The notes beneath the pieces are model-generated. The model was not told where the DNA came from, searched no databases, and saw only the letters and a list, made by a program, of their open reading frames with translations. Made by a program: the position numbers and the translations under genes. DNA of 62,465 nucleotides from an uncultured Bdellovibrionales bacterium (GTDB lineage Bacteria; Patescibacteriota; Minisyncoccia; Moranbacterales; UBA2206), in the NCBI GenBank assembly GCA_964636505.1, contig CAZWRY010000004.1, positions 4,985-67,449 on the forward strand. The letters are read 5' to 3'. How positions within the stretch are numbered: the first letter of the stretch is position 1; each line of letters begins with the position of its first letter. Below, in pieces: positions 21,898 through 25,837 of this stretch.

Positions 21898-24588
21898 TTA
21901 TATTTCTCCCCAGCTATCCCCAACTTTTACATCCACGATTAGCGGCACGTCCAAAGCATAGACGTTTTCCATAATTTCTTTGACCTTCTGGGCCACATCT
22001 TCGGCTATTTTTTCTTTAACTTCCAAAATAATTTCATCGTGTACTTGCAAAACCATTTTAACGTCTTGATTCCCAGCATATTTCTCGGCTACTTTGATCA
22101 TAGCTAGTTTCATAATGTCCGCCGCGAGGCCCTGAATGGGCATATTAATCGCCATTCTTTCAGCCGCATTGGCTACTTGAAAATTGGAAGAATTTATTTC
22201 CGGAATATAGCGGCGGCGTCCCATTTCCGTTTCCACATACAAATTTTTCTTGGCAAATTCTTTGGTCTTGATCATATATTTGGCAATGCCGGAAAATTTT
22301 TGCATATACTCATCAATAAATTTTTTGGCCTCTTCCCTGCCGATACCAGCCGACTCTGAAAATCCAAAAACGCTCATACCATAAATTACTCCAAAGTTGA
22401 GAGCTTTGGCACTTCTTCTCATTTTTCCCGTCACTTGCAAAAGCGAAACTTTATTTATTTCCGCCGCTGTCGCCCGATGCACATCCTCACCTTCCAAAAA
22501 TGTTTTAATCATTTTTTCGTCTTTGCTCACATGCGCCACTACTCGCAGATCAATTTGGGAATAATCCGCGCTCACTAGTTTGTTGCCGTCTTCAGCCACA
22601 AAGGCCGTGCGCAAAACCTGACCAAGCTCAGTCCGAATAGGAATATTTTGCATATTCGGATTAGAAGAAGAAAGTCGGCCGGTACTGGTCACCGCTTGAT
22701 TAAAGTCGCTATGGATTCTGGAATTTTCATCCACCAAAATCGGCAGAGTATCCAGATATGTAGTTTTCAATTTAAAAAGTTCACGATACTCTTCAATTTT
22801 GTCTATAATCTTATGTTCTTTTCTGATTTTAGAAAGTTCACTGGAAGCTGTTGAATAGCCGGTTTTTATTTTCTTTACGTTTCTGGTTGGAATTTCCAAT
22901 TTTTCAAATAAAATTTCAGCCAGTTGTTTGGGTGAATTTATATTAAATTCCGTTTCAGATAATTCATAGATGCCTTTTTCTAAAGTTTTAACTTTTTTGT
23001 CCAGTTTTTCCGAAATGCCTTTAAAAATAATCGTATTAAGTTTTATGCCATTTATTTCCATCTCTGCTAGAACTTCAATGAGAGGCATTTCTACATTCAA
23101 AAAAATATTTTCCAAGTCTCTTCCCCCTTTTTGTTCAGAAGATATTTTTTCAATTTTTTCCGCGTAAATTTTTTCCAGTTTGAAAATATAGTCTGCTTTT
23201 CTGGCAAATTTTTCAGCTCTTTTTTCACTGGATTCAATCTCCAGACCCAACTGCCCAGAAGAATTTTTTTCTTCCACTTCCTCACCTGTTTCATCCAGAA
23301 TTAATTTAGCAAAGTCCATTTTACTGCCCGGATTCAGAACATAGGCCATCAGCATCACATCGGCTGTGAGTCCTTTATATCTAATCCCAAGCCTTTGAAA
23401 AATTTCAAAATCAAATTTCAAATCATAGCCGATTTTTTTTATTTTTTCATTTTCTAAAACAGTTTTTAATTTTTCAAAATTTTCCTTGGAATATTCAACA
23501 AAACTCACACGCCCAGTTTTCCAGCAAAAAGCGACTCCCTGAATTGAGCTGTCAAAATATTTTAAGCCGATTGTTTCCAGGCTTACAGCCAGTTCTTGTT
23601 GCCCACTTAGAAATTTAACATGCTCGTCTAGTTTTCCCGAAGTTATATATTCAAATTTAAAATCTTTTACTTCATTTTTTTCATTTTCGGGCTTTAGCTT
23701 AACCTGCAAATTTGAATCAGGCAATCTCTTGATTAGACTAAAAAAGTTAAGCTCCTGAAAAAGATCTACTAATTTTTCCCTTTCAAATTCACGCGTCACA
23801 GCTGCCGAAAAATCCAATTTAAGCGGAACATTTTTAACAATCGTAGCTAAATTTTTAGACATGAAGGCTTTCATCTTGTCTCTTTCTAATTTATCTTTAA
23901 CTGCGTCTTTGATATCCGCTAAAGATGTGTAAACATTTTCCAAAGTTTCATATTTTTTCAAAAGTTCAACGGCTGTTTTTTCGCCAATACCTTTGACACC
24001 GGGAATGTTATCCGAAGGATCGCCGCGAAGACCCTTATAGTCAATCATTTGATTTGGGTTAAGGCCAAAACGCTCGCGAACAGCTGCTTCATCATAGAGA
24101 ACCGCATCGCCCATGCCTTTGCGCAAAGCAAAAACTTTTGTTTTCGGACCAACTAATTGCAGGGTGTCCAGATCTCCAGTGACAATAATGTTTTCCACAT
24201 CTTCTCCTGAATTTTCCGATTGATAAACCATTGTGCCAATTACATCGTCCGCTTCATAGCCTTCTTTTTCATAAATGGGAATATTGAAGGCTCGCACGAC
24301 TTCTTTGACTCTGCCAATTTGGGCATAGAGTTCATCTGGAGCTTTGACTCTGGTCGCTTTATATTCCTTATATTCAGTATGGCGAAAAGTCGGGGCCGCC
24401 AAATCAAAAGAAGCCAAGATATAGTCTGGCTTCAAATCATTGATAACCTTAAGTAAAACGCTAGTAAAGCCATACACCGCATTGACTAATTCTCCCTTTT
24501 TGGTAGTTAGCGGCGGCAAAGCATGATAAGCCCTGTGAATAAGGGCATTCCCGTCGATTAGTACCAGTTTTTTAGCTTCTTTGCTCAT
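21898..24588 (-). CDS. polA: DNA polymerase I
   Basis: LIDGNALIHRAYHA, TGRLSSSNPNMQNIP, DYSQIDLR, QVHDE. Confidence 0.98.
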   Translation of the reverse strand: MSKEAKKLVLIDGNALIHRAYHALPPLTTKKGELVNAVYGFTSVLLKVINDLKPDYILASFDLAAPTFRHTEYKEYKATRVKAPDELYAQIGRVKEVVRAFNIPIYEKEGYEADDVIGTMVYQSENSGEDVENIIVTGDLDTLQLVGPKTKVFALRKGMGDAVLYDEAAVRERFGLNPNQMIDYKGLRGDPSDNIPGVKGIGEKTAVELLKKYETLENVYTSLADIKDAVKDKLERDKMKAFMSKNLATIVKNVPLKLDFSAAVTREFEREKLVDLFQELNFFSLIKRLPDSNLQVKLKPENEKNEVKDFKFEYITSGKLDEHVKFLSGQQELAVSLETIGLKYFDSSIQGVAFCWKTGRVSFVEYSKENFEKLKTVLENEKIKKIGYDLKFDFEIFQRLGIRYKGLTADVMLMAYVLNPGSKMDFAKLILDETGEEVEEKNSSGQLGLEIESSEKRAEKFARKADYIFKLEKIYAEKIEKISSEQKGGRDLENIFLNVEMPLIEVLAEMEINGIKLNTIIFKGISEKLDKKVKTLEKGIYELSETEFNINSPKQLAEILFEKLEIPTRNVKKIKTGYSTASSELSKIRKEHKIIDKIEEYRELFKLKTTYLDTLPILVDENSRIHSDFNQAVTSTGRLSSSNPNMQNIPIRTELGQVLRTAFVAEDGNKLVSADYSQIDLRVVAHVSKDEKMIKTFLEGEDVHRATAAEINKVSLLQVTGKMRRSAKALNFGVIYGMSVFGFSESAGIGREEAKKFIDEYMQKFSGIAKYMIKTKEFAKKNLYVETEMGRRRYIPEINSSNFQVANAAERMAINMPIQGLAADIMKLAMIKVAEKYAGNQDVKMVLQVHDEIILEVKEKIAEDVAQKVKEIMENVYALDVPLIVDVKVGDSWGEI

Positions 24589-24661
24589 ATGCCTATTATA
24601 CAGCCAAAAGAAGGTTTAATAAAGAAAAAATTATTGATTTTTTTCTAAAAAGCGGAAGAAT

Positions 24662-24853
24662 TTGGCAAAAAGAAGGGTGTTTAAGATCGGAAGCGCAGTT
24701 AAAAGTTGCAAGTTTGAAAAGATTGAGGATGTTGAAAAATGGTTAAGTGAAGATAGTAATGTGTGTGGAGTTAGTCTGAAATGGGCAGTTTTGGGAGTGG
24801 TGGTTAGTAAAATTTCATATATTTTTAGTTCTTACAAAACAAAGGAGGCGTAA
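24662..24853 (+). CDS. Possible small hypothetical protein
   Basis: 63-aa ORF in the intergenic gap; no recognised motif. Confidence 0.3.
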   Translation: MAKRRVFKIGSAVKSCKFEKIEDVEKWLSEDSNVCGVSLKWAVLGVVVSKISYIFSSYKTKEA

Positions 24854-24855
24854 AA

Positions 24856-25077
24856 ATGAAAAAGATAAAAAAGTTTTGGCATCGTTTGTCCCAGGAAGTA
24901 GTTGAAGTCCTGAGGCATAAGGGCGGACCGTAAGGAACGCCGAAGGGTAAGCGCGGTTACAATCGCTCTGCTAAAAAAATGGCAGAAAAACATAGACGGG
25001 CAGTGAAGATTCTTTTACCTGCCCGTTTTTTTATTTGCAAAAATTTTATTTTTCCAGAAGTTCAATATTTTGAATGA
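24856..25077 (+). pseudogene. Small basic ORF (ArfA-like candidate) with in-frame TAA at 24931-24933
   Basis: AAAGGAGG RBS at 24841-24848. MKKIKKFWHRLSQEVVEVLRHKGGP*GTPKGKRGYNRSAKKMAEKHRR; a terminator at 24994-25032 precedes the next stop. Confidence 0.5.
24994..25032 (+). terminator. Intrinsic terminator
   Basis: agacgggcag..ctgcccgttt followed by a T-run. Confidence 0.8.
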
Positions 25078-25837
25078 TCATATCTTTCAAAGGACAATCT
25101 CTGTCGTTCACTTCTGTTTTTTCTATTTTCTTGACCACATCCATTCCTTCAACCACTTCTCCGAAATTGGTGTGCTTGCCATCCAGCCAAGGCGTGCTTT
25201 CCGCTGTCACAATGAAAAATTGGCTGCCATTGGTGTCAGCACCGGAATTAGCCATAGCCAAAGAGCCCTGAACTAATTTATGTGAATTGAATTCATCGGC
25301 AAATTTGTAATCCGGTCCGCCAGTTCCCCATCTGCTCTTGGCTGTTTCATCTTTGGAAAGCGGATCACCGCCTTGAATCATAAAATCTTTGATAATGCGA
25401 TGAAATTTTGTGCCTGCATAAAATCCATCTTGTGAAAGCCTCAGAAAATTTCCAACTGTTATTGGAGAATCAGTATTGTAGAATTTTACCTTTATATCCC
25501 CCGCGTTGGTTTTTATTTTAGCCGCCGTATATTTTTTTACGAGTTCGCTATTGTCTGACATATTGTTGTTTTGATTAATTTGATTATTTGATTGAACTCT
25601 TTTATTTTGATCTTCATTTAAAGTCTCGCTTAGTTTTTGATTTTGTTCATCATAGGCTTTTTGAATATTTTGTTTGGCTGTCTGGCTTATTCCGGTCATT
25701 TGCTCCAAATAGCCTTCATTTTGGGGTGAGGATGTCTTGTTTGACTCACCTACATTGTCCAAAATTTCTTGAGACAAGGTGCAGCCAGAAAGAAATAGAA
25801 TGCCAACCACCAACATTTCTATTTTTATTTTTTGCAT
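25046..25837 (-). CDS. Cyclophilin-type peptidyl-prolyl isomerase, lipoprotein
   Basis: LFLSGC lipobox; FHRIIKDFMIQGGDP, SQFFI, WLDGKHTNFG. Confidence 0.93.
   Translation of the reverse strand: MQKIKIEMLVVGILFLSGCTLSQEILDNVGESNKTSSPQNEGYLEQMTGISQTAKQNIQKAYDEQNQKLSETLNEDQNKRVQSNNQINQNNNMSDNSELVKKYTAAKIKTNAGDIKVKFYNTDSPITVGNFLRLSQDGFYAGTKFHRIIKDFMIQGGDPLSKDETAKSRWGTGGPDYKFADEFNSHKLVQGSLAMANSGADTNGSQFFIVTAESTPWLDGKHTNFGEVVEGMDVVKKIEKTEVNDRDCPLKDMIIQNIELLEK

Follow-up and report, generated by a model that had tools for sequence, protein, structure and literature searches.

The small open reading frame (ORF) described here lies in a 62,465-nt stretch of contig CAZWRY010000004.1 (positions 4,985–67,449; hereafter, the window) from assembly GCA_964636505.1, named as an uncultured Bdellovibrionales bacterium and carrying the GTDB lineage Patescibacteriota; Minisyncoccia; Moranbacterales; UBA2206. 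Together with a 63-aa ORF immediately upstream, it sits in a 457-bp intergenic gap between polA and a cyclophilin-type peptidyl-prolyl isomerase (PPIase) gene (Table 1), the two ORFs forming one block of ~390 bp. The 63-aa ORF gave no Pfam match and shows weak similarity (BLASTP E = 0.01) to a 63-aa ORF that precedes an intact homologue of the small ORF in the loci L009–L012; no promoter-like site was found in 24400–25300. The small ORF begins behind a strong ribosome binding site (RBS), as do its homologues, and is interrupted by a TAA, past which frame 0 reads GTPKGKRGYNRSAKKMAEKHRRAVKILLPARFFICKNFIFPEVQYFE up to a TGA at 25075–25077. This continuation carries the motif KGKRGYNR and runs through an intrinsic terminator. 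An earlier note, made from the letters of the window alone, had described this arrangement (the RBS, the ATG, the TAA, the motif, and the frame staying open through the hairpin), and each element of that description was confirmed.

Table 1. Features of the polA–cyclophilin gap and its flanks (coordinates of the window).
Feature	Position	Strand	Remark
polA	21898-24588	-	5′ neighbour of the gap
63-aa ORF (TTG start; stop TAA 24851-24853)	24662-24853	+	Ends 2 nt before ATG 24856
Shine-Dalgarno sequence AAGGAGG	24842-24848	+	7 nt 5′ of ATG 24856; overlaps the end of the 63-aa ORF
Pseudogene, 5′ part: 25 codons, MKKIKKFWHRLSQEVVEVLRHKGGP, then premature TAA 24931-24933	24856-24933	+	
In-frame continuation past the TAA, GTPKGKRGYNRSA, with the family's conserved basic motif KGKxGYxR	24934-24972	+	
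A7 run with frameshift relative to intact relatives	24973-24979	+	
Ancestral C-terminus, shifted to the +1 frame: WQKNIDGQ, ending at TGA 25004-25006 within the hairpin	24980-25006	+	
Intrinsic terminator: stem 24994-25028, T7 25026-25032	24994-25032	either	
Unconserved frame-0 tail past the terminator, …ICKNFIFPEVQYFE-stop	25033-25077	+	Overlaps the 3′ end of the cyclophilin gene
Cyclophilin-type PPIase gene	25046-25837	-	Convergent with the small ORF

The read-through frame matched a profile of small basic proteins (A3) with E = 2e-20 (hmmsearch on a six-frame translation), and the locus was recovered in genome searches with E = 8.6e-21 and 5.6e-21, alongside intact homologues whose matches extend across the TAA site (E = 1e-8 to 1e-21). 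When 40 related genomes were searched in six frames, four such intact homologues appeared, none with a stop across the TAA site. On this homology, the window ORF is more than a chance frame and is the remnant of a real gene, as the earlier note had proposed, along with the expectation, likewise borne out, that homologues would be conserved on either side of the TAA. The position of the premature TAA is a conserved Gln or His in relatives. The five closest homologues (P0012, P0017, P0018, P0019, and P0037) read ...RHKGGPQGT... and ...LRHKGGPQGTPKGKRGYNRS... at this point, the closest homologue at the DNA level (L013) has CCG CAA GGA against CCG TAA GGA in the window, and more distant members carry His (GGAH). 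The suggestion that a single CAA to TAA substitution separates the window from a GGPQ sequence was therefore correct, given the GGPQG of the five closest homologues and the CAA of L013.

The one-base distance between TAA and the CAA of relatives is also what a sequencing or assembly error in an otherwise intact gene would leave behind, a possibility that the earlier note had raised. Using the identical cyclophilin protein as bait, we found six Logan contigs from other runs as independent copies of the region. Across the 457-bp region, the assemblies of four runs (L014, L015, L016, and L018) showed zero differences from the window, and a fifth (L017) also has the TAA; its sole difference in 2,483 bp is a non-synonymous SNP within the pseudogene (window 24874, TTT to CTT, F7L). 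Searches of genome and metagenome collections for exact copies of the sequence around the TAA gave no match. With the TAA standing in five independent assemblies, and with further lesions at the same locus (below), we consider an error very improbable. TAA is, moreover, the main stop codon of this genome, ending 325 of the 473 long ORFs, and no suppressor tRNA was found in it. Given the identical assemblies, the dominance of TAA as a stop, and the lack of a suppressor tRNA, the TAA is a fixed nonsense mutation, neither an error nor a recoded codon.

Two further departures from the intact gene lie downstream. In intact close relatives, the C-terminus follows the pattern ...(E/N)(K/N)NW(R/K)(N/K)(Y/H)(V/I)-stop, with examples ending in NWRNYV, NWKKYI, and NWKKHI. 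The distance from the Ala/Ser codon to the conserved Trp codon is 7 nt in the window versus 9 or 12 nt in relatives, so that only the +1 frame encodes the equivalent of this C-terminus (WQKNI); the window has also lost the ancestral stop, ~9 nt having gone with it. If a family ORF is taken as an uninterrupted frame of 41–60 codons that ends either 12–20 codons past the motif Tyr or at an in-ORF terminator, what we find at this locus is a TAA at codon 26, a frameshift at A7, and a lost stop. The frame that stays open through the terminator, to which the earlier note had given functional weight, is thus a by-product of decay here; the unconserved tail that it yields past the terminator (25033–25077) is presumably neither transcribed nor translated.

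The hairpin itself is strong. On the plus strand, it folds with −17.8 kcal/mol (z = −5.45; 0 of 200 shuffles fold as well) and is followed by U7AUUU, whereas the minus-strand hairpin is weaker (−14.6 kcal/mol, z = −4.1), is followed by CUAUGUUUUUC, and lies 13–17 nt past the cyclophilin stop. In L013, the homologue ends at a stop 7 nt 5′ of the terminator hairpin, while in L009–L012, the stop is followed by a gene for an 86-aa membrane protein and only then by a terminator (AACGGGCAGTGAAGA...GCCCGTTTTTT), which in the L009 three-gene small operon is visibly homologous to the window hairpin. Given this order and the homologous terminator, the window has lost the 86-aa gene, its broken ORF becoming fused to the operon terminator. 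Two genomes of the same genus (G001 and G002) lack the whole ~390-bp block; in G002, a hairpin that is recognisable as homologous remains between polA and the PPIase gene, without the ORF, and the corresponding stretch of G001 aligns poorly. Since genus-mates lack the block and G002 retains the hairpin, we regard the hairpin as an ordinary, probably bidirectional terminator, which probably also ends the convergent cyclophilin gene. The earlier note had itself stated that homologues stopping before the hairpin would make it an ordinary terminator shared with the cyclophilin gene, and this is what L013 (stop before the hairpin), L009 (stop before another gene), and G002 (hairpin without ORF) display. 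The absence of the block from two same-genus genomes also indicates a lineage that is shedding the gene. Partial synteny with L009–L012, where the order of a 63-aa ORF and the family gene is followed by TsaE and a DHH protein, suggests that the cassette was inherited from an ancestor and is no recent acquisition.

A 457-bp intergenic stretch with a strong terminator at its end could also be pictured as encoding a small RNA, with no protein remnant involved. At the gathering and E-value thresholds, Rfam reported just tRNAs elsewhere and a terminator look-alike; no Rfam family reached threshold over the region, where the weak match is the terminator itself, and ARAGORN placed no tRNA or tmRNA there. 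As protein-level homology with codon-wise conservation accounts for the sequence, we give the small-RNA explanation hardly any credence.

It is also conceivable that the gene is functional as it stands, the TAA being read through or recoded (as Gln, for example) so that a full-length rescue factor of the non-stop type is made, or the in-frame stop might act as a sensor of release-factor activity, in the manner of the in-frame stop of prfB. Both sides of the TAA are conserved with the frame preserved across it, the TAA is fixed in several samples, and the genome encodes RF1, RF2, and tmRNA (with smpB directly followed by ssrA), all of which would suit such a gene. Against this stand the dominance of TAA as a stop and the missing suppressor tRNA, together with the absence of a stop at this codon from all other family members, the second lesion downstream (A7 frameshift and stop loss), and the deletion of the gene in genus-mates. 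A +1 shift at the TAA would destroy the motif; a programmed +1 frameshift at CCG-TAA-G was accordingly considered and rejected, the shifted frame (KERRRVSAV...) having lost the conserved sequence. We therefore judge a functional gene at this locus to be highly improbable, if somewhat less so than an error or a small RNA. As a separate observation on the release factors, one of the two release-factor genes, on G000 contig C14 (18229–18936, outside the window), matches PCRF only from position 76, in a 274-aa open frame, which is the pattern expected of a prfB with a programmed +1 frameshift, and a PCRF fragment lies at the contig end of C21.

The sequence at 24856–25006 is a fixed pseudogene of an unnamed family of very basic proteins of 45–55 residues. 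Three lesions mark its decay: codon 26 has changed from CAA to TAA, the frame has shifted within the A7 run, and the ancestral stop has been lost along with the downstream 86-aa gene found in relatives. With these lesions, translation stops at 25 residues and yields no family protein. The hairpin at 24994–25032 terminates a small plus-strand operon. The lack of a promoter-like site around the locus and the patchy occurrence of the family (below) also favour a pseudogene. Very little speaks against the pseudogene reading, although the 25-residue peptide could in principle retain some activity. Taken by itself, the locus is a case of routine gene decay in a shrinking genome, and its value is as a pointer to the family.

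The consensus of that family is MKKKK-x4-RLPxEAVExLRHKGGAHSSxKGKRGYxRxKEK, its core comprising a Lys-rich N-terminus, RLPxEAVxxLR, usually KGG(A/P)(H/Q), then (S/G)(S/T)xKGK(K/R)GY(D/N)RK, and a charged tail. A profile search of 5.8 billion proteins returned 43 clusters, mostly of 45–55 residues and all annotated as ‘hypothetical’, and a HMMER scan across all 1.84 billion representatives extended this to 125 at E ≤ 1e-3 (clustering at 50% identity). Pfam, NCBIfam, and PHROGs gave nothing significant for the window peptide and its homologues, and no family model covers them. An AlphaFold2 model (pLDDT 70, low confidence) has helices at residues 12–21 and 36–45, separated by a 14-residue loop that holds the basic motif; Foldseek found no match to it. 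Profile searches of the PDB returned just noise (a ubiquitin–eS31 junction, TetR, and Schlafen). We conclude that the family is real, unannotated, and new. The best PDB match, to 8pj1_k (E = 0.3, non-significant), aligned the ubiquitin/eS31 junction LRLRGGAKKRKKKSY with LRHKGGAHSSKKGKKGY of the family and is probably a coincidence of composition.

Within the CPR, DNA-level searches placed members in Moranbacteria, Saccharibacteria, Azambacteria, and Giovannonibacteria. The earlier note had envisaged an analogue particular to the CPR, a restriction that no longer holds, as the family also occurs in Nitrospirota, NC10, Deltaproteobacteria/Thermodesulfobacteriota, Acidobacteriota, and Latescibacterota, as well as in one Planctomycetes MAG and one Firmicutes-labelled MAG. 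The Nitrospirota members are without the GG and have acidic C-termini. The family was found in 10 of 121 relatives of the window’s genome (10 of 67 genera), in 1 of 400 further genomes sampled from the phylum, and in 17 of 201 genomes of the class of a Candidatus Magnetocorallium paracelense MAG. Its occurrence is thus patchy, and the gene is dispensable in most relatives.

Gene neighbourhoods vary across the family. In the Magnetocorallium MAG (L045/L119), smpB (337–780), the tmRNA gene (885–1230, with the tag ANDELALAA), and the family gene (1462–1632) lie on one strand; this linkage to smpB–ssrA was absent in the 16 other carriers of the class (1 of 17 overall). In four Deltaproteobacteria/Thermodesulfobacteriota MAGs (L053, L056, L059, and L060), the family gene abuts or overlaps an upstream gene for a lysine-rich protein of ~110–120 aa with a Rho_N domain, with a tRNA-Leu(tag) nearby, and the L107 copy forms an in-frame fusion with a downstream ORF resembling an enoyl-CoA hydratase.

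Many family members carry a terminator within the reading frame. A hairpin with a T-tract inside the ORF (−10 to −20 kcal/mol) was noted at L004, L030, L031, L032, L033, L050, L114, L116, L117, L118, and L136, the stop codon lying just past the T-tract or many codons later. A loose terminator detector was discarded, as it scored 11% of ordinary genes as having terminators in their coding sequence. With a strict detector, 69 unique family loci gave 5 terminators inside the ORF, 4 overlapping the stop, and 4 beyond it, compared to 8, 1, and 51, respectively, for 683 genes of the window’s own genome; terminators inside the ORF are thus ~6-fold enriched in the family (5/69 vs 8/683; Fisher p = 0.004, inside vs all). 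At the protein level, a Phe-rich hydrophobic tail, the translation of the T-tract, is seen in 43 of 147 clusters (29%), beginning mostly 14–24 residues past the motif Tyr, and the members with ordinary stops end at the same place (12–20 residues past it). Where such tails were checked on the DNA, 10 of 11 corresponded to terminators and one was ambiguous. Sequence is conserved 5′ of the T-tract and unconserved 3′ of it; P0020 and P0024, for instance, are identical at 53 of 55 residues before the T-tract and unrelated after. In-ORF terminators occur in at least six separate subfamilies and, by these sequence counts, probably in about a quarter to a third of family lineages, with ordinary stops in ~70% of members, the window’s GGPQ subfamily included. 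At the window itself, the terminator falls within the ORF only in the decayed frame, and its nearest relatives stop before the hairpin.

In the lineages with in-ORF terminators, a non-stop mRNA would be the template for the protein, which would be subject to negative control by tmRNA–SmpB, as with ArfA and BrfA. We assign a probability of roughly 80% to the account as a whole, that is, a pseudogene of an unnamed family followed by an ordinary terminator at the window, with non-stop mRNA in those members that carry a terminator in the ORF.

ArfA (alternative ribosome-rescue factor A; YhdL of E. coli, Pfam PF03889) and BrfA (YqkK of Bacillus subtilis) are the two factors that this architecture brings to mind. 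ArfA binds RF2 through residues 15–31, which form a β-strand with Phe25, and its basic tail occupies the mRNA channel. Like the family, ArfA is small and basic (52–55 aa in the active form), and its KKGKGSYMRK (KKGKGSYMRKGKH) resembles the KGKRGYNR of the window in being Lys/Gly-rich and followed by Tyr and Arg/Lys, the window carrying the basic-tail variant KGKRGYNRSAKK of the ArfA sequence KGKGS(Y)xRK. Some members come closer still, with KKGKGSYDRK or KKGKGSYSR in P0107 and P0113, and KKGNGSYTRKQKH in P0134. The N-terminal part is helix-rich in both (AIEALL in ArfA, VVEVLR in the window), the in-ORF hairpin and hydrophobic, unconserved tail of ~29% of family clusters recall arfA, and the genomes that carry the family have tmRNA–SmpB and RF2.

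ArfA was also the most frequent weak Pfam match of the family, hitting 4 of 139 members with a best E of 6e-4 (19.7 bits, against a gathering score of 25.5 bits), but these sub-threshold matches fall on the mRNA-channel motif only (profile positions 27–42). The ArfA HMM matched neither the read-through peptide (E ≤ 10) nor anything in the whole genome. Aligned by hhalign to E. coli ArfA, from which a homologue search gave near-identical enterobacterial sequences only and no diverse ArfA profile, the family yielded either a motif-only alignment or a probability of 1.6–2.1%. Where ArfA has DPLFRQRVE, the family has KGGAH(S/G), with no counterpart of the RF2-binding strand and its Phe25, and, unlike ArfA, most family members have ordinary stop codons. 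The taxonomic range differs as well, as a 2024 survey confines ArfA to Gamma- and Betaproteobacteria and BrfA to the B. subtilis group (PMC11633108), and the family lies outside this published ArfA range. Membership of the ArfA family was consequently rejected for the window and its family, having failed in the HMM, PDB-profile, and hhalign tests. Of the likeness to ArfA that the earlier note had seen, the top place among weak Pfam families and the in-ORF terminators of many members stand, whereas membership by HMM does not.

The brfA gene has a Rho-independent terminator before its stop, giving a non-stop mRNA and control by trans-translation (PMC6881298, PMC8012679), and a terminator before the stop with a non-stop mRNA is the architecture that defines the expression of both arfA and brfA (PMC8012679, PMC6881298). 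The family members with in-ORF terminators share this architecture with BrfA. When family profiles A3 and A5 were compared with all PDB chains, neither BrfA nor ArfA appeared at E ≤ 10; these chains presumably include the ribosome-bound forms of both proteins. BrfA membership was likewise rejected, there being no detectable sequence similarity.

The third factor of this kind, ArfT of Francisella tularensis, is basic and ~40 aa long, and its published KKGGSTNKK stretch resembles HKGGAHSTKKGKK of the family (10.1101/465609). Like the majority of the family, it has an ordinary stop and no truncation control (10.1101/465609), while the RLPxEAVxxLR segment and GYxR motif of the family are not described for ArfT, the comparison being with the published stretch. 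A wider KGG-type family that includes ArfT has been proposed by Burroughs and Aravind in 2019 (PMC6514570); for the 139 members, no KGG match stood among 25 of the 27 weak Pfam families listed. Finally, ribbon-helix-helix proteins (Arc/CopG/MetJ) are of similar length (~45–50 aa), and the ‘RLPxE + helix’ of the family matches their signature of a β-strand and helix A, but the family has a 14-residue Gly/Lys-rich loop where these proteins have a tight turn. Arc (PF03869) was a weak match in 2 of 139 members (E = 0.038), and no toxin or operator context is conserved around the family genes. With the Arc matches weak and Foldseek without a match, membership of the ribbon-helix-helix group was not accepted.

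Given its small size, its charge, its channel-type motif, and the recurrent non-stop architecture, a rescue function of the Arf type (ArfA/BrfA/ArfT) would be plausible for the intact family, which we put forward as a tentative proposal. The position of the gene directly behind smpB–ssrA in one genome, and the presence of tmRNA, SmpB, RF1, and RF2 but no ArfB in these CPR genomes, also count in its favour. On the same sequence grounds, one might doubtfully extend it to a multi-phylum family of rescue factors, in phyla for which no ArfA or BrfA is known, in which about one-third of the lineages have evolved terminator-truncated, non-stop expression repeatedly and independently; by analogy with ArfA and BrfA, such a protein might be made only when trans-translation fails, a step that we hold just as loosely. 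Against an Arf-like function, we count the failure to obtain a significant link to ArfA or BrfA by HMM, profile–profile, or PDB-profile comparison, the ordinary stops in ~70% of members, the lack of GG in Nitrospirota, the linkage to smpB–ssrA in 1 of 17 carriers, the N-terminus of ribbon-helix-helix appearance, and the dispensability of the gene.

Several of these points would sit comfortably with small nucleic-acid binders, either DNA binders like the ribbon-helix-helix proteins or generic basic proteins associated with RNA or the ribosome, in which the in-ORF terminators are accidental and reflect the tolerated loss of stop codons in tiny genes that abut terminators. The N-terminal RLPxEAVExLR has the strand–helix start of the Arc/CopG type (with weak Arc matches in 2 of 139), the AlphaFold model is a helix-loop-helix, most members have ordinary stops, the similarity to ArfA is below threshold, and the gene is paired with that of a Rho_N-domain lysine-rich protein in Deltaproteobacteria. 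However, the 14-residue loop between the helices holds the most conserved motif, unlike in ribbon-helix-helix proteins, and the in-ORF terminators show the ~6-fold enrichment over control genes. Products of non-stop mRNAs are normally tagged and degraded, yet these terminators persist in at least six subfamilies with strong conservation of the upstream coding sequence. We regard such nucleic-acid binders as a serious candidate, short of an even chance.

Whichever function applies, the family is unannotated and easily synthesised at ~50 residues, and it unites an mRNA-channel motif like that of ArfA with terminators that recur within the ORF. According to reviews of ribosome rescue, further small factors that recruit RFs are likely to exist beyond the reach of homology searches (PMC8012679, 10.1101/465609), and none of the Arf type has been described for CPR/Patescibacteria in the literature that we searched. 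Exactly two genes with RF domains were present in 41 of 41 relatives of the window’s genome, leaving no room for ArfB. If the family does act in rescue, RF-dependent rescue would reach far beyond Proteobacteria and Bacillus, non-stop mRNAs would have been used as a sensor of trans-translation either convergently or since ancient times, and CPR bacteria, otherwise with tmRNA–SmpB only, would have a back-up route. If it does not, the in-ORF terminators would still need explaining.

A second interrupted copy of the family gene was seen in L038, from the MAG labelled Candidatus Fimivivens, where an in-frame TGA (352–354) replaces a conserved Trp, that of KPSKWRLP in relatives; this could be a nonsense mutation or could point to a contig that reads TGA as Trp. 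The L038 sequence shares 70% identity with members from Moranbacteria, an odd result for a bin labelled as Firmicutes. In the CPR relatives G037 and G654, the loci L003 and L142 have GD(I)Q or GGPN instead of GGAH and end in ...RRERMTLD-stop or ...QRRLFD-stop, and the sequences downstream of the two are alike (ttcggcaagttgatttatcataatct and tccggcaagctgatttatcataatct, respectively), marking a conserved 3′ flank.
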